The notes beneath the pieces are model-generated. The model was not told the DNA's origin, made no database searches, and saw only the letters and a list, made by a program, of their open reading frames with translations. From the NCBI RefSeq assembly GCF_003334765.1, contig NZ_QOWT01000002.1: DNA of 64,000 nt; one strand, written 5' to 3'. Position numbers and translations under genes: made by a program. Below, piece by piece: positions 747 through 9,976 of the stretch; positions within the stretch are counted from its first letter, which is position 1; every line of letters begins with the position of its first letter. The stretch comes from Escherichia coli (GTDB lineage: Bacteria > Pseudomonadota > Gammaproteobacteria > Enterobacterales > Enterobacteriaceae).

Positions 747-1799
747 TCAGGCGATAGTAATTTTGCTATCGAGATAAACGTCCTGCACGGCGTTAATCAG
801 TTTCACGCCGTCAGCCATCGATTTCTTGAACGCTTTACGTCCAAGAATCAGCCCCATTCCGCCAGCGCGTTTGTTGATAACCGCAGTACGCACTGCATCA
901 CTGAGGTCAGTTTCACCGCCCGCAGCACCGCCGGAGTTTATCAACCCAGCCCGGCCCATATAGCAGTTAGCTAACTGATAACGCACCAGATCAATCGGGT
1001 TTTCGCTGGTTAACTTGCTGTACACGCGATCGTCGGTATAACCGTAATTAATCGCTTTATAACCGCCGTTATTTTCCGCCATTTTCTGTTTGACGATGTC
1101 CGCGCCAATGGTCGCCGCCAGATGGTTCGCCTGACCAGTCAGGTCGGCGGAAACATGGTAATCAACGCCATCTTTCTTAAAGGCGGAGTTACGCAAATAG
1201 GCCCACAGCACTGTCACCATGCCCAGCTCGTGCGCACGTTCAAAAGCCGCAGAAATTTCTTCAATCTGGCGACGTGACTCTTCCGAGCCAAAATAGATAG
1301 TCGCACCAACCGCAACCGCGCCCATGTTGAACGCCTGCTCCACGCTGGCATACAGCGTTTGATCGTAGGTATTCGGGTAACTTAGCGTCTCGTTGTGATT
1401 AAGTTTGACGAGGAATGGAATGCGATGCGCATAACGCCGCGATACCGACGCCAGCACGCCGTAAGTTGACGCCACACAGTTACAGCCCGCTTCGATCGCC
1501 AGTTCAACAATGTTTTTCGGGTCAAAGTAGAGCGGGTTAGCAGCAAATGAAGCTCCGGCAGAGTGCTCAACGCCCTGGTCAACCGGCAGAATAGAAAGAT
1601 ATCCTGTGCCAGCCAGACGCCCGGTGTTGTACAACGTCTGCATATTACGTAACACCGCAGGCGGGCGATTATTGTCAATCATCACGCGGTCTACGTAGTC
1701 ATGTCCGGGGAGATAAAGCTGGTCAGAAGGAATAGTCATACAACGGTGCTGTAAAAGGTTGTCGGCGTCTTTGCCAAGCAACTGCGCAATATCTGTCAT
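747..1799 (-). CDS. fbaB: Fructose-bisphosphate aldolase class I
   Basis: ORF 747..1871; internal Met giving [16 protein letters not shown]... matches the remembered 350-aa FbaB N-terminus; ATG at 1797-1799 (minus). Confidence 0.9.
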
Positions 1800-2055
1800 T
1801 ACTATGCTCCCGTAAATTCCGATTGGATATCGGCTATGGATTTTCCTGGCCCGCCTTTTGCGGGCAATCATAATCCTGGTCGTTACGGGCGAGTTTTTCC
1901 ATCTTTTGGATGTTTTTTCAGCGTTTTCTGTTGGCTCGATTCATCAGAAAAAATGTTAGCGCGGTCAAGTTTTCACCGCAAAGGTATTTAAAAGGTATTA
2001 TTAAGTGGTATTGTCATCGCGTACCTTACATTACCTGTCATGAAGGAATTAAAAG

Positions 2056-3333
2056 ATGAAAACAACAGCAAAGCTGTCGTTCATGATGTTTGTTGAATGG
2101 TTTATCTGGGGCGCGTGGTTTGTGCCATTGTGGTTGTGGTTAAGTAAAAGCGGTTTTAGTGCCGGAGAAATTGGCTGGTCGTATGCCTGTACCGCCATTG
2201 CGGCGATCCTGTCGCCAATTCTGGTTGGCTCCATCACTGACCGCTTTTTCTCGGCGCAGAAAGTGCTGGCGGTATTGATGTTCGCAGGCGCGCTGCTGAT
2301 GTATTTCGCTGCGCAACAGACCACTTTTGCCGGGTTCTTCCCGTTACTGCTGGCCTACTCGCTAACCTATATGCCGACCATTGCGCTGACTAACAGCATC
2401 GCTTTTGCCAACGTGCCGGATGTTGAGCGTGATTTCCCGCGCATTCGTGTGATGGGCACTATCGGCTGGATTGCCTCCGGTCTGGCATGTGGTTTCTTGC
2501 CGCAAATACTGGGGTATGCCGATATCTCACCGACTAACATCCCGCTGCTGATTACCGCCGGAAGTTCTGCTCTGCTCGGTGTGTTTGCGTTTTTCCTGCC
2601 CGACACGCCACCAAAAAGCACCGGCAAAATGGATATTAAAGTCATGCTCGGCCTGGATGCGCTGATCCTGCTGCGCGATAAAAACTTCCTCGTCTTTTTC
2701 TTCTGTTCATTCCTGTTTGCGATGCCACTAGCGTTCTATTACATCTTTGCCAACGGTTATCTGACCGAAGTTGGCATGAAAAACGCCACCGGCTGGATGA
2801 CGCTCGGCCAGTTCTCTGAAATCTTCTTTATGCTGGCATTGCCGTTTTTCACTAAACGCTTTGGTATCAAAAAGGTATTATTGCTTGGTCTGGTCACCGC
2901 TGCGATCCGCTATGGCTTCTTTATTTACGGTAGTGCGGATGAATATTTCACCTACGCGTTACTGTTCCTCGGTATTTTGCTTCACGGCGTAAGTTACGAT
3001 TTTTACTACGTTACCGCTTACATCTATGTCGATAAAAAAGCCCCCGTGCATATGCGTACCGCTGCGCAGGGGCTGATCACGCTCTGCTGCCAGGGCTTCG
3101 GCAGTTTGCTCGGCTATCGTCTTGGCGGTGTGATGATGGAAAAGATGTTCGCTTATCAGGAACCGGTAAACGGACTGACTTTCAACTGGTCCGGGATGTG
3201 GACTTTCGGCGCGGTGATGATTGCCATTATCGCCGTGCTGTTCATGATTTTTTTCCGCGAATCCGACAACGAAATTACGGCTATCAAGGTCGATGATCGC
3301 GATATTGCGTTGACACAAGGGGAAGTTAAATGA
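2056..3333 (+). CDS. yegT: Nucleoside permease, NupG/XapB-family MFS transporter
   Basis: 425-aa ORF, highly hydrophobic multi-TM protein; position and sequence consistent with E. coli YegT. Confidence 0.88.
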   Translation: MKTTAKLSFMMFVEWFIWGAWFVPLWLWLSKSGFSAGEIGWSYACTAIAAILSPILVGSITDRFFSAQKVLAVLMFAGALLMYFAAQQTTFAGFFPLLLAYSLTYMPTIALTNSIAFANVPDVERDFPRIRVMGTIGWIASGLACGFLPQILGYADISPTNIPLLITAGSSALLGVFAFFLPDTPPKSTGKMDIKVMLGLDALILLRDKNFLVFFFCSFLFAMPLAFYYIFANGYLTEVGMKNATGWMTLGQFSEIFFMLALPFFTKRFGIKKVLLLGLVTAAIRYGFFIYGSADEYFTYALLFLGILLHGVSYDFYYVTAYIYVDKKAPVHMRTAAQGLITLCCQGFGSLLGYRLGGVMMEKMFAYQEPVNGLTFNWSGMWTFGAVMIAIIAVLFMIFFRESDNEITAIKVDDRDIALTQGEVK

Positions 3334-4334
3334 AAACAGAACGTATTCTCGGTGCTCTTTATGGGCAGGCGTTAGGGGATGCGATGGGGATGCCCTCCGA
3401 GCTTTGGCCACGCAGCCGCGTTAAAGCACACTTTGGCTGGATTGACCGTTTTCTTCCTGGACCAAAGGAGAATAACGCGGCCTGTTATTTTAACCGCGCC
3501 GAATTCACCGACGATACCTCGATGGCGCTGTGTCTGGCGGATGCGTTACTGGAACGTGAAGGCAAGATCGATCCGGATCTGATTGGGCGTAATATTCTCG
3601 ACTGGGCGCTGCGTTTCGACGCCTTTAACAAAAACGTACTAGGTCCGACCTCGAAGATTGCGCTTAACGCCATTCGCGACGGTAAACCCGTTGCTGAACT
3701 GGAAAACAACGGCGTGACCAACGGCGCAGCGATGCGCGTCTCGCCATTAGGTTGTTTGCTTCCGGCGCGTGATGTTGATTCCTTTATTGATGATGTAGCG
3801 CTGGCGTCCAGCCCGACCCATAAATCCGATCTGGCGGTTGCAGGCGCGGTAGTCATCGCATGGGCGATTTCTCGTGCCATTGACGGAGAAAGCTGGTCAG
3901 CGATTGTTGATTCCCTGCCTTCAATTGCGCGACATGCACAGCAAAAACGCATCACTACGTTCAGCGCCTCACTGGCGGCGCGGCTGGAGATTGCGCTGAA
4001 AATTGTGCGCAATGCCGACGGCACCGAATCCGCCAGCGAACAGCTTTACCAGGTCGTTGGCGCAGGTACCAGCACTATTGAGTCCGTTCCGTGCGCCATT
4101 GCGCTGGTTGAACTGGCACAAACCGACCCGAATCGCTGCGCCGTCCTGTGCGCTAACCTTGGCGGCGACACAGACACCATCGGTGCTATGGCGACGGCAA
4201 TTTGCGGCGCGTTGCATGGCGTTAACGCTATCGATCCTGCGTTAAAGGCGGAACTGGATGCGGTAAATCAGCTTGATTTCAACCGCTATGCCACAGCGCT
4301 GGCGAAATATCGTCAACAACGGGAGGCGGTATGA
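3330..4334 (+). CDS. yegU: ADP-ribosylglycohydrolase-family protein
   Basis: 334-aa ORF; ATGA start/stop overlap with yegT; N-terminal GQALGDAMGMP motif typical of ADP-ribosylglycohydrolases. Confidence 0.85.
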   Translation: MKTERILGALYGQALGDAMGMPSELWPRSRVKAHFGWIDRFLPGPKENNAACYFNRAEFTDDTSMALCLADALLEREGKIDPDLIGRNILDWALRFDAFNKNVLGPTSKIALNAIRDGKPVAELENNGVTNGAAMRVSPLGCLLPARDVDSFIDDVALASSPTHKSDLAVAGAVVIAWAISRAIDGESWSAIVDSLPSIARHAQQKRITTFSASLAARLEIALKIVRNADGTESASEQLYQVVGAGTSTIESVPCAIALVELAQTDPNRCAVLCANLGGDTDTIGAMATAICGALHGVNAIDPALKAELDAVNQLDFNRYATALAKYRQQREAV

Positions 4335-5296
4335 GCGGCGCTCGATTACACACGCTGCTGCCTGAATTAACCACGCGTCAGTCGGTGATGGTCGTCGGCG
4401 CGGCGGTCATTGACGTGATCGCCGACGCTTATGCCCTCCCCTGGCGTGGGTGCGATATCGAACTGAAACAGCAGAGCGTTAACGTTGGCGGCTGCGCACT
4501 GAATATTGCCGTGGCGTTAAAGCGCCTCGGCATCGAAGCGGGTAATGCCTTGCCGCTCGGTCAGGGCGTGTGGGCGGAGATTATTCGCAACCGGATGGCA
4601 AAAGAGGGCTTAATCAGCCTGATCGATAACGCCGAAGGTGATAACGGCTGGTGTCTGGCGCTGGTTGAGCCGGATGGCGAACGCACTTTTATGTCATTCA
4701 GCGGTGTTGAAAATCAGTGGAATCGCCAGTGGCTGGCGCGATTAACCGTTGCGCCTGGCAGCCTGCTCTATTTTTCCGGTTATCAACTGGCCTCGCCCTG
4801 CGGCGAATTGTTAGTGGAATGGCTGGAAGAGCTGCAAGACGTGACGCCGTTTATCGATTTTGGCCCACGTATTGGCGATATCCCGGATGCATTACTGGCG
4901 CGGATCATGGCCTGTCGACCTTTAGTGTCGCTCAATCGTCAAGAGGCTGAGATTGCCGCCGAACGTTTTGCTTTATCCGCAGAGATAACAACACTTGGCA
5001 AGCAATGGCAGGAGAAATTTGCCGCGCCGTTGATCGTTCGTCTCGATAAAGAAGGCGCATGGTATTTCAGCAACGACGCTTCTGGCTGCATTCCGGCATT
5101 TCCAACGCAAGTTGTCGACACCATTGGGGCGGGCGACAGTCATGCCGGTGGCGTACTTGCCGGGCTGGCCTCTGGTCTGCCACTGGCGGATGCCGTATTA
5201 CTGGGCAATGCAGTGGCGTCGTGGGTTGTCGGGCATCGGGGCGGTGATTGTGCGCCAACGCGCGAGGAACTACTCCTCGCACACAAAAACGTATAG
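4331..5296 (+). CDS. yegV: PfkB-family sugar/nucleoside kinase
   Basis: 321-aa ORF overlapping the yegU stop by 4 nt; C-terminal DTIGAGDSHAGG motif typical of the ribokinase/PfkB family. Confidence 0.85.
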   Translation: MSGARLHTLLPELTTRQSVMVVGAAVIDVIADAYALPWRGCDIELKQQSVNVGGCALNIAVALKRLGIEAGNALPLGQGVWAEIIRNRMAKEGLISLIDNAEGDNGWCLALVEPDGERTFMSFSGVENQWNRQWLARLTVAPGSLLYFSGYQLASPCGELLVEWLEELQDVTPFIDFGPRIGDIPDALLARIMACRPLVSLNRQEAEIAAERFALSAEITTLGKQWQEKFAAPLIVRLDKEGAWYFSNDASGCIPAFPTQVVDTIGAGDSHAGGVLAGLASGLPLADAVLLGNAVASWVVGHRGGDCAPTREELLLAHKNV

Positions 5297-6016
5297 ATCG
5301 CTGCGACAGTGGCTAATGCTGTACTCAATAGGCCGTTGCTGTTGGTCAAGCGCCACTTGCTTGATCACCAGCACCGGTATTTTGCTATCTAACTGAATAT
5401 GTGACTGAAACTCGGCATCCGGCATCCGGGCGCTAACGCGGGAACGCGTACGTTGTGGGTAAATGTGCTGGCTGCGGAAATAGTCATAAAGTGAAATCCC
5501 GATGGCATCAACATCATGAATTAAATGCGCCGGAACCCACGATTCCTCAATCGATACCGCATCTTCATCGACATAGCGAATACGCTTAAGCAAAAAGACA
5601 TCACTTCCTGCTTCGACCGCCAGCTGCTGCGCGACTTCTTCGGGACATTTCACGACACGCTTGTTAACCCATAGCGTATCGGGCTTTTTCCCGCGCAATA
5701 CCACCTGCTGAGAAAAACCTCGCGCTTCTTTCAACGAGTATTCGAAGATGTTGTTGATCTGCGTGCCGTAACCGCGCGAACGCGTCACCACACCCTCTTC
5801 TTCCAGCGCCTGCATCGCCTTGCGCACCGTAATGCGCGAAACGCCGGTTAACTGACTTAAATCACGCTCACCGGGCAAAATATTGCCATGCTCCAGCACC
5901 CCGCTGCGCACGGCATTTTTTACCGTTTCGGCAAACTTAATATAAAGCGGCGTGTTATCCGCCGCTAAAATACGCTCGTTCAGTTGGGCAATCAGCTGGG
6001 TATGCGCTTGTTCCAT
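5270..6016 (-). CDS. yegW: GntR/HutC-family transcriptional regulator
   Basis: 248-aa ORF; N-terminal winged-helix segment (LPGERDLSQLTGVSRITVRKAMQALEEEGVV) plus UTRA-like C-terminus. Confidence 0.88.
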   Translation of the reverse strand: MEQAHTQLIAQLNERILAADNTPLYIKFAETVKNAVRSGVLEHGNILPGERDLSQLTGVSRITVRKAMQALEEEGVVTRSRGYGTQINNIFEYSLKEARGFSQQVVLRGKKPDTLWVNKRVVKCPEEVAQQLAVEAGSDVFLLKRIRYVDEDAVSIEESWVPAHLIHDVDAIGISLYDYFRSQHIYPQRTRSRVSARMPDAEFQSHIQLDSKIPVLVIKQVALDQQQRPIEYSISHCRSDLYVFVCEE

Positions 6017-6067
6017 TTGTCTTTTTCCTGCCGGGGAGTCTGGTGGGAGTATATCACTGCTTCTTAT

Positions 6068-6886
6068 TTAAGGCGTTTCTTTAATCCCATCAACGAATGC
6101 CTGCAACTCCTCCACCGTGCCATTAAATACATTAAAATCCACCGGACCATTGATGCCATCTACCTGTCCACGGTCGGAATGCTGCCAGAAGCGCCAGGCC
6201 ATTCCGTCATTGTCCGGACGACGTTGATAGTAGTGAGCCACCCACCACGGATATTCATTGAAATAGCCCGCCAGATTGGTGTGATAAAAAACGGCTCCTG
6301 AGTAAATAATCGGCTTTTTCCCCGTACTTTTTTCGACCATTTTTAGCCACTGACTTACCCGCTTGCGTAATTCTTTTGCCGATAATTTTCCCCGTTCTTC
6401 TACGTCCAGCACGGCAGGGAAATCGCCTTGTGAGAAATCCACCGTTTGCAGAAATAATCTCGCCTGAACTGAAGCGGATACCGACGGGGAGAAATAATGA
6501 TACGCCCCACGCAGCAGGCCATTTTCGCGGCTTAGTTGCCAGTTACGCGAAAAATAGGGGTCCACCAGCTTTTCGCCTTCCGTCGCCTTAATAAAAGCAA
6601 ACTGTAAGCGGATACCGTTGTCGCGCATTTTTGCCACCCGCTGCCAGTCGATCCGCTCCTGCCAGCGCGAAACATCTATTCCGTGAATGGTGTAACTGGC
6701 AGGAATGCGAATAGCGAAAGATTTAACCGGGCGATAACCGTAGAAGTGGATGTAGTCTGTAATCTGAACTGCTGTCGAATAGAAAAAATTCACCGTCTGA
6801 CGCGGATAAATTGCAACGATGGAAATTAGCCCAAGAGCGCATAATAGAGAGGTGAGTTTTTTTCGACTGGTAATTCTTAGCTGCAT
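6068..6886 (-). CDS. yegX: Glycoside hydrolase family 25 (lysozyme-like muramidase), N-terminal signal/anchor
   Basis: ORF 6068..6895; start set at internal Met (MQLRITSRKK...); GH25-like YHGIDVSRWQ and DYIHFYGY motifs. Confidence 0.8.
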   Translation of the reverse strand: MQLRITSRKKLTSLLCALGLISIVAIYPRQTVNFFYSTAVQITDYIHFYGYRPVKSFAIRIPASYTIHGIDVSRWQERIDWQRVAKMRDNGIRLQFAFIKATEGEKLVDPYFSRNWQLSRENGLLRGAYHYFSPSVSASVQARLFLQTVDFSQGDFPAVLDVEERGKLSAKELRKRVSQWLKMVEKSTGKKPIIYSGAVFYHTNLAGYFNEYPWWVAHYYQRRPDNDGMAWRFWQHSDRGQVDGINGPVDFNVFNGTVEELQAFVDGIKETP

Positions 6887-6950
6887 TGGTTTCATCCCTG
6901 AATGTCAGTGCCAAAGGCTGACAATAACCAAAGCAGCTATAGTACGGTGC

Positions 6951-7751
6951 TCACCACCAGGCGTGGAAGTGGTGAACCGGACCAATACCGTGACCAACTT
7001 CCAGCGTGTCGGCCTGGGCTAACGCCGATGAAAGCCAGCTTTTTGCCTCCTGTACGGTGTCAGCCCAGTTTGTATGGCGCGGGCGTAGTGCAGCCAACGC
7101 CGCAGAGAGTGTACAACCAGTGCCGTGGGTGTTTTTGGTCATAATGCGCGGTGCGGTAAACCGTTGTTCACCCTCGCGGGTAAACAGCCAGTCCGGGCTT
7201 TGCTCATCATCCAGATGACCACCTTTCATTAGCACTGCGCCACAGCCCATCGCCAACAGCGATCGCCCTTGTTCCAGCATTTCCTGTTCGGTGCGCGCGT
7301 GTGGCGCGTCGAGCAAGGCGGCAGCTTCGGGCAAGTTTGGCGTTATTAATGAAACCTGTGGCAATAATCGACTGCGCAGCGTAGCAACCGCCGAAGGTGA
7401 AAGCAGCGGGTCGCCGCTTTTTGCCAGCATAACGGTGTCGAGTACCACGTTTTGGATCTGATAACGTTGCAACCGTTCTGCCACCGCTTCAACAATATCG
7501 GTTTCCGCCAGCATACCGATTTTAGTGGTATCGATTCGCACATCGCTGAACACCGAATCGAGCTGGGCGGCGACAAAATCAGGCTCAATGCGATACACCG
7601 ACTGTACGCCACGGGTATTTTGCGCCACCAGTGCAGTAATAACTGAGCAACCATAAGCGCCAAGTGCCGAGAAGGTTTTAAGATCGGCCTGAATCCCCGC
7701 ACCACCACTCGGATCAGTACCGGCAATCGTCAGAGCGTTAATTCGTTTCAT
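6951..7751 (-). CDS. thiD: Hydroxymethylpyrimidine/phosphomethylpyrimidine kinase
   Basis: 266-aa ORF; [27 protein letters not shown]... recognised as ThiD; overlaps the thiM stop by 4 nt. Confidence 0.92.
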
Positions 7752-8536
7752 GCCTGCACCTCCTGCGTCAATTGCCAGAGCGCATCAAGGAAATGTGGAA
7801 CAAAACTGCCTGGTCCCTCGCTTCTGGCGACTGCGCGTTCTCCGGCTTGTTTCATCCAGTGACAGGCAGATGCGACATTTTCCAGCGTATCGCCTGGTAA
7901 CGCACAGCAGGCAGCGACAACCGCCGATAATGCACAGCCAGTTCCTACCACTTTGGTCATTAACGGATCACCACCGTGAATACCAATGATACGATGTCCA
8001 TCGGTAACATAATCCATCTCGCCAGTGACCACGACGATTGCGCCAGTTTCCCGTGCCAGTGTTTGTGCAGCGGGTATCGCGTTAGCTGCGGCGTCAGTGG
8101 TATCCACTCCCCGTCCGCCATTAGCAATGCCAGCTAATGCCATGATTTCCGAAGCATTACCACGTATCGCTGCCGGTTTAAAAGATAAAAGTTCATGACA
8201 AAAATGGCGGCGATAATCGAGCGCACCCACCGCTACTGGATCAAGCGTCCAGGGTGTTTGAGAGCTTTTTGCTTGCTCAACGGCAGCACGCATCGCCTGA
8301 GCGCGTGGCTGCGTCAGTGTGCCAACGTTAATCAACAAGGCACTGGCGATAGCCGCAAACTGACTGGCCTCTTCGGTTTCGATAACCATCGCTGGCGATG
8401 CACCGAGCGCCAGCAAGGTATTGGCGGTAAAGGTTTGCACCACATCATTGGTCATGCAGTGCACAAGAGGGGAATGTTGGTGAAAAAGGTGTAACGCGTG
8501 CGCAGATTGCGCTGAACCCAGCAGGTCGACTTGCAT
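7748..8536 (-). CDS. thiM: Hydroxyethylthiazole kinase
   Basis: 262-aa ORF ([33 protein letters not shown]...) recognised as ThiM; first gene of thiMD. Confidence 0.92.
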
Positions 8537-8544
8537 AGTTTGCT

Positions 8545-8680
8545 CCTGCCATAACGTGAAGAAGCAATGACCTGGTGGTCCGTGACTTCCCTACGCTGGC
8601 ATTATCCAGATCAGGTGATACGGGTATTTCTCAGCCTTCACGCAGAAGGGCACCCCGAGTCGTTTGGTTGCGATGATAAA
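8545..8680 (-). promoter_or_regulatory. TPP (thi-box) riboswitch in the thiM 5' leader
   Basis: Minus strand reads GGGGUGCCCUUCUGCGUGAAGGCUGAGAAAUACCCGUAUCACCUGAUCUGGAUAAUGCCAGCGUAGGGAAGUCACG, the classic E. coli thiM TPP aptamer with the CUGAGA core, immediately upstream of the thiM AUG. Confidence 0.88.
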
Positions 8681-8758
8681 TCGCAGAGGAGGATGGTAAT
8701 GTCCAGCGCACGCGTTGTAAACGAGGAAAAACGGCAGTTTTACAATCGCGTTAATAAA

Positions 8759-9031
8759 TTATTTGATATATGAATCCAGCACCTTCAGAACGACATCCAG
8801 ATCTTCTTCACGTTTTAGCTCATCCCCCTGGTGAACGATGTGTTCCGTCAGATGACCTTTAATCACTTCCCGCATCAGACCGTTTACCGCGCCACGGATA
8901 GCAGCAATCTGTTGTAAAACTGCAGCGCATTCGTGCGGCTCGTCGAGCATTTTCTTGAGCGCCACGACCTGGCCCTGAATCTTACTGGCACGCGCTTTCA
9001 GTTTCTGTTTATCACGGATTGTATGAGACAT
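8759..9031 (-). CDS. rcnR: Ni/Co-responsive transcriptional repressor (CsoR/RcnR family)
   Basis: 90-aa [50 protein letters not shown]...; divergent from rcnA. Confidence 0.9.
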
Positions 9032-9079
9032 GGCAACACCTGGTTAACAAGAATATGAAAAATCATAGCACTATTAATC

Positions 9080-9114
9080 TACTGGGGGGTAGTATCAGGT
9101 ACTGGGGGGGAGTA
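9080..9114. promoter_or_regulatory. Tandem RcnR operator sites (TACT-G6/7-N-AGTA) in the rcnR-rcnA divergent promoter region
   Basis: tactggggggtagta (9080-9094) and tactgggggggagta (9100-9114) seen directly; match the published RcnR recognition motif. Confidence 0.8.
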
Positions 9115-9151
9115 GAATCAGATTGCCGAATTAATACTAAGAATTATTATC

Positions 9152-9976
9152 ATGACCGAATTTACAACTCTTCTTCAGCAAGGAAACGCCTGGTTCTTCA
9201 TCCCCAGCGCCATCTTACTTGGTGCGCTTCATGGCCTGGAACCAGGGCACTCAAAAACGATGATGGCGGCGTTTATCATCGCCATCAAAGGCACCATTAA
9301 ACAAGCGGTGATGCTCGGACTGGCAGCAACTATTTCGCATACCGCAGTGGTCTGGTTAATTGCCTTTGGCGGGATGGTGATCAGCAAGCTCTTTACTGCT
9401 CAATCAGCAGAACCGTGGCTCCAGCTGATTTCCGCAGTGATCATTATTAGCACCGCGTTCTGGATGTTCTGGCGTACCTGGCGCGGCGAACGCAACTGGC
9501 TGGAGAATATGCACGGGCATGATTATGAGCATCATCATCACGATCACGAACATCACCACGACCATGGACATCATCACCATCACGAACATGGCGAGTATCA
9601 GGATGCCCATGCACGAGCCCATGCCAATGACATTAAACGACGCTTTGATGGTAGAGAGGTCACCAACTGGCAAATTTTGTTATTTGGCTTAACCGGTGGC
9701 CTTATCCCCTGCCCGGCAGCAATTACCGTGCTGTTGATATGCATTCAGTTGAAAGCCCTGACACTGGGCGCAACACTGGTCGTCAGTTTCAGCATTGGCC
9801 TGGCGTTAACGCTTGTCACCGTAGGCGTTGGCGCAGCAATCAGCGTTCAGCAGGTCGCAAAACGCTGGAGCGGATTTAACACTCTCGCTAAACGCGCCCC
9901 CTATTTTTCCAGTCTGTTGATTGGCTTAGTCGGTGTGTATATGGGCGTACATGGCTTCATGGGCATAATGCGATAA
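9152..9976 (+). CDS. rcnA: Nickel/cobalt efflux permease with histidine-rich cytoplasmic loop
   Basis: 274-aa ORF; multi-TM; His-rich segment HGHDYEHHHHDHEHHHDHGHHHHHEHGEY. Confidence 0.9.
   Translation: MTEFTTLLQQGNAWFFIPSAILLGALHGLEPGHSKTMMAAFIIAIKGTIKQAVMLGLAATISHTAVVWLIAFGGMVISKLFTAQSAEPWLQLISAVIIISTAFWMFWRTWRGERNWLENMHGHDYEHHHHDHEHHHDHGHHHHHEHGEYQDAHARAHANDIKRRFDGREVTNWQILLFGLTGGLIPCPAAITVLLICIQLKALTLGATLVVSFSIGLALTLVTVGVGAAISVQQVAKRWSGFNTLAKRAPYFSSLLIGLVGVYMGVHGFMGIMR

Follow-up and report, generated by a model that had tools for sequence, protein, structure and literature searches.

The convergent genes yegV and yegW of Escherichia coli share the 27 nt in which both of them end, and comparison across genomes shows that this overlap is genuine, ancient and fixed across the Enterobacteriaceae and Pectobacterium. 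We consider it reasonably probable that this conserved dual-coding overlap arose by loss of a spacer, that transcription at the junction is ended by a hairpin and by Rho, and that the arrangement is mostly incidental, being neither an annotation artefact nor a dedicated regulatory device. The overlap is already annotated, and its tail-to-tail kind is ordinary and already known. What is incremental here is the breadth of its conservation, the codon selection in two reading frames, the likely loss of an ancestral terminator and a candidate one-way terminator embedded in yegW.

The overlap and the two protein ends

The window, that is the whole 64,000-nt stretch of E. coli DNA analysed here, includes the fbaB-yegTUV / yegW-yegX-thiDM region of the chromosome, and the features of the junction are listed in Table 1. 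Compared with MG1655, the region has 3 differences in 4100 positions, and 5200-5400 is identical. Of 5426 complete E. coli genomes, 5424 match the segment 4900-5700, and each of the 12 matches that were sampled carries annotations for both yegV and yegW. An earlier, sequence-only reading had described a 27-nt convergent overlap of the two coding ends. The sequence, the list of open reading frames (ORFs) and the RefSeq annotations of strain 14EC001, where the overlap is identical, and of MG1655 all bear this out, and both TAG stop codons are real according to the ORF list and RefSeq. The MG1655 annotation places yegV at 2181096..2182061 and yegW, under the product name 'DNA-binding transcriptional regulator GgaR', at 2182035..2182781, with the overlap at 2182035-2182061.

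Table 1. Features at the yegV-yegW junction (positions in the window)
Feature	Position	Strand	Description and basis
yegV CDS	4331..5296	+	PfkB-family sugar kinase, 321 aa; TAG stop 5294-5296; ORF list, RefSeq
yegW (ggaR) CDS	6016..5270	-	GntR/HutC-family repressor of yegTUV, 248 aa; TAG stop 5270-5272
27-nt dual-coding overlap	5270..5296	both	phase 123:321; sequence, conservation, codon co-constraint
Inverted repeat GCGAGGA-ACTAC-TCCTCGC	5262..5280		centred on the yegW stop; sequence, fold
RNA just downstream of the yegW stop	5190..5269	-	antisense to yegV; 41% C, 21% G, little structure
Interrupted hairpin, 19-20 bp, 5-nt loop (candidate yegTUV terminator)	5332..5378	+	antisense to yegW codons 213-229; folding
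U-rich tail ATTTTGCTATCT	5379..5390	+	directly 3' of the hairpin; antisense to yegW codons 209-213

The codon boundaries of the two genes coincide throughout the overlap. The plus strand reads CTA CTC CTC GCA CAC AAA AAC GTA TAG, which encodes the last eight residues of YegV (L314, L, L, A, H, K, N and V321) and its stop, and the minus strand reads CTA TAC GTT TTT GTG TGC GAG GAG TAG, which encodes L241, Y, V, F, V, C, E and E248 of YegW and its stop. Each stop codon falls within a leucine codon of the partner gene: the yegV TAG is the reverse complement of the CTA codon for Leu241 of YegW, and the yegW TAG is the reverse complement of the CTA codon for Leu314 of YegV.

Alignment with homologues and solved structures shows that yegV and yegW are real protein-coding genes that end as annotated. 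Hundreds of homologues share the GntR and UTRA domains of YegW or the PfkB domain of YegV. YegW can be aligned with the solved NagR/YvoA structures, which are HutC-type repressors, up to residue 245 of 248, and in this alignment the overlapped codons LYVFV correspond to C-terminal residues of YvoA. YegW orthologues are 248 aa long across the Enterobacterales and end in SD(L/M)YVFV(C/S)EE, the tail being SDLYVFVCEE in the Enterobacteriaceae and SDMYVFVSEE in more distant Enterobacterales. YegV, the product of the last gene of the yegTUV operon, has homologues of 321-322 aa and aligns with the structures of ribokinases and KDG kinase to residues 313-316 of 321. Ribokinases and KDG kinase carry several residues beyond the end of the YegV alignment, so the length of the YegV tail is normal. 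The sequence-only reading had proposed that both stop codons be confirmed by alignment with orthologues; both C-termini turn out to be typical of their families, and neither ORF ends early.

That one of the two ORFs truly ends earlier, leaving no true coding overlap, is hardly credible. Misannotated 3' extensions are indeed common among long convergent overlaps, but 27 nt lies below the 60-nt range in which such artefacts dominate (PMC2478687). Moreover, both tails align to solved homologues nearly to the last residue, the YegW tail is invariant in 45 species with the stop positions of both genes conserved, and codon usage within the overlap shows selection from both frames.

Conservation and origin of the junction

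As such, an overlap of 27 nt is ordinary and not improbable in the 123:321 register. Antisense stops in this register arise only opposite CTA, TTA and TCA codons. These make up 3.1% of the codons of seven local genes, so the probability that eight codons stay open is 0.78. Convergent overlaps account for about 7% of annotated overlaps (PMC2478687), and 33% of convergent overlaps of at least 5 nt are in the 123:321 phase (PMC2174442). What goes beyond the chance expectation is the conservation of the overlap and its codon-level co-constraint.

Junctions were compared at 75 loci, found by a profile search with YegW in one genome per species, and both ORFs were extended to their stops at each locus. 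An overlap of exactly 27 nt is shared by 45 species in more than 15 genera of Enterobacteriaceae plus Pectobacterium; these include Escherichia, Citrobacter, Salmonella diarizonae, Enterobacter, Raoultella, Kluyvera, Leclercia, Lelliottia, Cedecea, Buttiauxella, Atlantibacter, Mangrovibacter, Superficieibacter and others. The overlap measures 14 nt in Pantoea-like genomes and one Serratia and 4 nt in Tatumella. The gene ends are separated by 1 nt in Rahnella, by 32 nt in Providencia, by 34 and 97 nt in Budvicia and by a 67-nt spacer in Yersinia intermedia, and in Vibrio the operon and yegW lie on the same strand. The YegW protein of Pectobacterium is 84% identical to that of E. coli and the Pantoea protein about 61%; these identities suggest horizontal transfer, which would complicate the history of the junction.

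Among the species with the 27-nt overlap, the YegW tail SDLYVFVCEE is invariant and the YegV tail follows the pattern LLL[A/T][H/D/N/Y][K/E][N/D/H][V/I]. All of the YegV variants fall at first codon positions of yegV, which are synonymous third positions of yegW, so the drift of the YegV tail is set by the synonymous drift of yegW. Within the overlap, neither gene varies at any second codon position (100% invariant), and third-position entropy is 0.54 there against about 1.1 elsewhere. Glutamate codons of yegW within the overlap are almost always GAG (85 GAG to 1 GAA), as opposed to 424 GAA and 315 GAG in the rest of the gene; the two terminal glutamates are forced to GAG because GAA would turn a YegV leucine into phenylalanine. 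Leu241 is always encoded by CTA or TTA, which together make up 13% of leucine codons elsewhere, since any other leucine codon would abolish the yegV stop. Both stops are TAG or TAA, never TGA. Purifying selection is thus detectable from both reading frames, and the codon counts and invariant second positions show that selection on both protein tails holds the overlap in place. On this comparative evidence, the conservation of the junction is fully explained by the protein constraints on the two tails.

The outgroups suggest how the two gene ends may have come together. The 32-nt spacer of Providencia contains a perfect stem (AAAGAGAAAGA/TCTTTCTCTTT) flanked by runs of A and T, which gives it the shape of a bidirectional terminator. 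Hairpins are also found in the spacers of Budvicia (AACCGTTG / CAACGGTT) and Yersinia intermedia (13-bp stem). The ancestor probably had a short spacer with a terminator hairpin, and loss of this spacer would have fused the gene ends; the direction, loss and not gain, was read from a few outgroup genomes and from the standard relationships among families.

The reverse change is seen in two lineages. In Buttiauxella agrestis the genes have been re-separated by an inserted repeat element, and the two yegW glutamate codons are GAA GAA there. The insert matches a multi-copy, unannotated intergenic repeat present in all E. coli genomes, and it is an ERIC-like element, judging by the ERIC consensus. 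In Citrobacter sedlakii the genes are separated again by a 96-nt insertion with two hairpins. Both lineages have kept both genes intact despite the separation, so the overlap is not indispensable.

Transcript ends around the overlap

The sequence-only reading also held that the convergent overlap leaves no room for independent terminators. This stands as far as intergenic space goes, of which there is none, but a candidate hairpin with a U-rich tail lies inside yegW on the plus strand, beginning 36 nt after the yegV stop. Plus-strand RNA from 5285 to 5400 folds at -39.9 kcal/mol (z -3.7), and estimates of the stability of the hairpin range from -25 to -28 kcal/mol. The hairpin region also encodes residues 209-229 of YegW, and we therefore used a control in which synonymous codons were shuffled within yegW while protein and codon usage were held constant. 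Against this control the E. coli segment stands out, with -27.9 kcal/mol compared with -12.7 ± 2.9 kcal/mol for the synonymous shuffles (z -5.3), and it is the sole outlier among 46 windows tiling yegW. The same kind of shuffle was applied to 43 loci with the 27-nt overlap and to the window, and 24 of these 44 sequences reach z <= -3. The RNA of the plus strand is more stable than that of the minus strand in 41 of 49 species, because the variation runs through G-U wobble pairs. Within the whole 64 kb, no other hairpin with a T-rich tail is as stable, and the candidate has the stable stem-loop of an intrinsic terminator. Relatives that carry a spacer hairpin show only weak structure at the embedded site.

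The U-rich tail varies between genera. The E. coli tail (AUUUUGCUAUCU) has four consecutive U and 7 U in 12 positions. It is T-rich in Escherichia, Enterobacter and Pectobacterium and weaker in Citrobacter (ACTTTGCT), and the U-tract is absent in Cedecea and Buttiauxella (ACCGGCGT). In about one third of the species with the overlap, among them Kluyvera, Pseudocitrobacter, Pluralibacter and S. diarizonae, the hairpin itself is weak or absent, and signals for a comparable embedded hairpin are inconsistent in the lineages with 14-nt and 4-nt overlaps (Pantoea-like genomes, Tatumella and Serratia). Covariation is weak across 32 related species (RNAalifold and pair counts), with three pairs changed on both sides, and no reduction of synonymous diversity was seen in the hairpin codons. 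The hairpin emerged only from folding: around the junction no terminator was picked up by a simple scan for promoters and terminators (1500-7200), whose number of matches did not exceed that in shuffled sequence.

It is possible, if doubtful, that the hairpin is no terminator at all and represents a palindrome due to chance or to the encoded protein, the yegTUV transcript ending instead within yegW through Rho, collision or processing. Several of the observations above point this way. The stem is long and interrupted, unlike the typical terminator stem of 5-14 bp, and was missed by the simple scan; Cedecea and Buttiauxella lack the U-tract, several genera lack the hairpin, and there is little true covariation. 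Much of the sequence is also fixed by conservation of the amino acids it encodes (PVLVIKQVALDQQQRP). The shuffles that hold protein and codon usage constant nevertheless leave the E. coli segment at z = -5.3 and 24 of 44 sequences at z <= -3, and a single window of yegW stands out among 46. Against the same alternative also speak the G-U wobble changes that make the plus-strand RNA the more stable one in 41 of 49 species, the rank of the hairpin as the strongest with a T-rich tail in 64 kb, and the weak structure at this site in relatives that keep an intergenic hairpin.

The yegTUV band of about 3.3 kb on Northern blots (PMC10819704) is compatible with a 3' end shortly after yegV and does not discriminate between sites. 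The TERMITe Term-seq supplements and the 3'-end supplements of Adams et al. contain no entries for yegV or yegW. A search of 1500-9500 against Rfam (E <= 1) returned the thiM TPP riboswitch only, and no known RNA family at the junction. The hairpin palindrome was also considered as an operator for GgaR and rejected, as the GGTATT repeats of the yegT promoter region bear no relation to TGGTCAAG...CTTGATCA; no binding motif is defined in the GgaR paper (PMC10819704).

On the minus strand, the RNA just downstream of the yegW stop is rich in C and poor in structure, and we infer from its composition that it may resemble a Rho-utilisation or loading region. A folding scan of the minus-strand RNA through yegV gave no window below z = -2, and in a hairpin-plus-tail screen the next intrinsic terminator-like site on this strand beyond yegW appeared only at 3074-3039. 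The inverted repeat around the yegW stop forms a 9-bp hairpin in the minus-strand RNA, with the UAG in its loop and no U-tract after it. Its left arm varies between genera and is missing from Cedecea, Buttiauxella and Pectobacterium. We rejected this repeat as a terminator or conserved element, given the missing U-tract and a left arm that is unconserved beyond the Escherichia-Citrobacter-Enterobacter type. It is probably a by-product of the similar RE(E/A) and CEE codons on opposite strands.

Regulatory coupling and known convergent systems

GgaR, the product of yegW, responds to ADP-glucose, numbers about 20 molecules per cell and represses yegTUV, its single ChIP target (PMC10819704); the regulator and target relationship that had been supposed from the sequence for the two convergent units is thus established. 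According to the account favoured here, the ancestral terminator hairpin was lost with the spacer, and in the overlapping lineages yegTUV transcription would stop at the hairpin and U-tract that lie antisense in yegW (5332-5390). For yegW, termination by Rho would take place in the C-rich RNA that runs antisense to yegV. The yegTUV and yegW mRNAs are predicted to be complementary over roughly 120 nt or more, so that effects of interference or of RNase III are possible. Such effects may result in positive feedback on derepression, which we expect to be modest.

A stronger role for the junction would be coupling of the excludon type, in which yegTUV polymerases enter the 3' end of ggaR, collision or RNase III cleavage of the duplex lowers GgaR, derepression becomes switch-like, and the overlap is conserved for this reason. 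Coupling of the two units by transcriptional interference had been raised by the sequence-only reading, and by analogy with other systems such interference is plausible and would be mechanistically reasonable. GgaR is scarce and represses the very operon that converges on its gene (PMC10819704), circuit thresholds can be shifted in E. coli when a repressor gene is transcribed in the antisense direction (PMC4731013), and head-on collisions of RNA polymerases occur at convergent pairs (bioRxiv 10.1101/2022.10.23.513370). Tight or overlapping junctions also recur in several families (27, 14, 4 and -1 nt). The pair is listed among the 165 convergent excludons of MG1655, the criterion being detection in at least 50% of 58 RNA-seq sets (ExcludonFinder, PMC12288877), but any pair with overlapping coding sequences reaches this criterion trivially. 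Capture of dsRNA (p19) for convergent excludons was not feasible in that study (PMC12288877). If the embedded terminator works, the collision zone would measure only about 120 nt and the weak ggaR promoter would make collisions rare. Furthermore, B. agrestis and C. sedlakii separated the genes and kept both intact, and the protein constraints on both tails fully account for the conservation. Taken as the reason for which the overlap is conserved, we regard excludon-type coupling as unlikely.

More speculative still, and in our view improbable, is the reading in which the overlap and the embedded one-way terminator together form a positive-feedback element that makes yegTUV induction hysteretic and all-or-none, the junction having been selected for this circuit. 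Here ADP-glucose would release GgaR, and the induced yegTUV transcript with its antisense 3' end of about 120 nt would cut the synthesis of the scarce repressor. This could occur through polymerase collision, through truncated non-stop ggaR mRNAs or through RNase III cleavage.

The favoured account, a mostly incidental overlap, places yegV-yegW among the conserved convergent overlaps surveyed previously (Lillo & Krakauer 2007, PMC2174442; Palleja et al. 2008, PMC2478687; and the survey of Rogozin et al. 2002, as cited in PMC2478687). Like those pairs, it consists of real genes that overlap at their 3' ends in the 123:321 phase, with a stop codon complementary to a leucine codon, conservation in multiple species, purifying selection on two strands and a likely origin by loss of a spacer or stop. 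Nothing essential differs, although this overlap is conserved beyond the 'very close species' in which long overlaps are typically shared, and a repressor is paired here with the final gene of the operon it controls. As a listed excludon, the pair has its terminator-like element in the neighbour's transcription unit, as do 146 of the 165 pairs (PMC12288877), but its overlap involves coding sequences and not UTRs alone.

The junction also resembles bidirectional terminators (Wang et al., bioRxiv 10.1101/2022.10.23.513370) in that a stem-loop lies close to the boundary of two convergent genes. The Providencia, Budvicia and Yersinia outgroups carry an intergenic hairpin as these systems do, and the full combination of an intergenic hairpin with an A-tract upstream and a T-tract downstream is present at the Providencia locus (L047) and absent in E. 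coli. In E. coli the hairpin lies inside yegW, and the U-rich tail occurs on the plus strand only (ATTTTGCTATCT, as against CCTATTGAGTAC on the minus strand), so the embedded hairpin is at best unidirectional. SEnd-seq work from the same laboratory as that of Wang et al. has reportedly found bidirectional terminators or collision-driven termination between convergent genes. In the synthetic antisense promoters of Brophy & Voigt 2016 (PMC4731013), convergent transcription lowers a repressor and shifts its threshold, and it could do likewise at yegV-yegW; unlike in that design, the converging promoter is controlled by the same repressor, which would create feedback.

For annotation, the pair offers a clean positive control of a true convergent coding overlap, one that should not be 'corrected'. 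For genome engineering, the TAG-to-TAA recoding oligonucleotides for yegV and yegW overwrote each other because of the overlap (PMC3458525), and each change leaves the protein of the partner gene as it was, CTA becoming TTA and both codons specifying leucine. For regulation, the junction is a small and testable case in which the sole target operon of a repressor runs with its 3' end into the repressor gene, whose coding sequence hides a candidate terminator. If the coupling is true, antisense-tuned feedback would have a natural example in yegV-yegW; if it is false, the pair would indicate that conserved overlaps need no regulatory explanation.

Overlaps and known or putative regulatory sites around the yegTUV operon

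[quoted passage not shown] Upstream of thiM, the RefSeq annotation of a TPP riboswitch agrees with the Rfam match. Transcripts that read through the end of yegW would meet their first intrinsic-terminator-like site, according to a hairpin-plus-tail screen of the window, only in the antisense hairpin within yegT, approximately 2.2 kb beyond the stop codon of yegW.

A promoter-like site upstream of yegT (TTCACC-18-TATTAT, 1972-2001) is overlapped by three direct GGTATT repeats. These repeats are candidate operators for GgaR (YegW), a HutC-type repressor; no GgaR motif is defined in the paper describing this regulator (PMC10819704). The divergent fbaB/yegT promoter region also contains an imperfect inverted repeat.

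Table. Coordinates of overlaps, known or putative regulatory elements and spacers
Feature	Position	Strand	Details
Inverted repeat	window 1838-1876		imperfect; core GCCCGC-CTTTT-GCGGGC; divergent fbaB/yegT promoter region
GGTATT repeats	window 1980-2030		three, direct; starts ~1984, 1995, 2008; upstream of yegT
Terminator-like hairpin	window 3039-3074	-	AGCCCCTGCGCAGCGGTACGCATATGCACGGGGGCT then TTTTTAT; antisense, within yegT CDS
yegT/yegU overlap	window 3330-3333		same strand, 4 nt
yegU/yegV overlap	window 4331-4334		same strand, 4 nt
thiM/thiD overlap	window 7748-7751		same strand, 4 nt
TPP riboswitch	window 8571-8667	-	upstream of thiM; Rfam RF00059, 71 bits, E 6e-13
Buttiauxella agrestis spacer	locus L036, 6748-6858		111 nt between yegV and yegW; ERIC-like element
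Citrobacter sedlakii spacer	locus L012, 6748-6816		96-nt insertion; two G+C-rich hairpins (REP-like); splits yegV/yegW

Codon constraint beside the yegV/yegW overlap

Low synonymous diversity extends to yegW codons 231-240 (window 5297-5326), just outside the overlap, where the third-position entropy is 0.67 and 42 of 43 species use TAC for Tyr232. The sequence around the yegV stop codon, or a small hairpin at 5290-5325, may account for this.

Separated, apparently decayed and possibly transferred loci

Two of the related species have yegV and yegW separated again. In Buttiauxella agrestis, YegV gains a new tail from the spacer, whose element resembles the ERIC consensus. This element matches, at approximately 80% identity, an unannotated multi-copy intergenic repeat that is present in all E. 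coli genomes (5426/5426). The median number of sites per genome is 4. The Citrobacter sedlakii insertion leaves a 69-nt gap between the genes, while the rest of the locus is of the Citrobacter type.

The Salmonella enterica subsp. arizonae locus looks like a decayed operon that has kept its regulator: yegW is intact, the adjoining yegV and yegT are detected as remnants only, and yegU has no match at this locus. Finally, YegW from two Pectobacterium loci (L031 and L033) shares 84% identity with its E. coli counterpart, and the genes have the same 27-nt overlap, whereas Pantoea YegW is ~61% identical and the overlap is 14 nt. This comparison suggests that the yegV/yegW locus was horizontally transferred between families.
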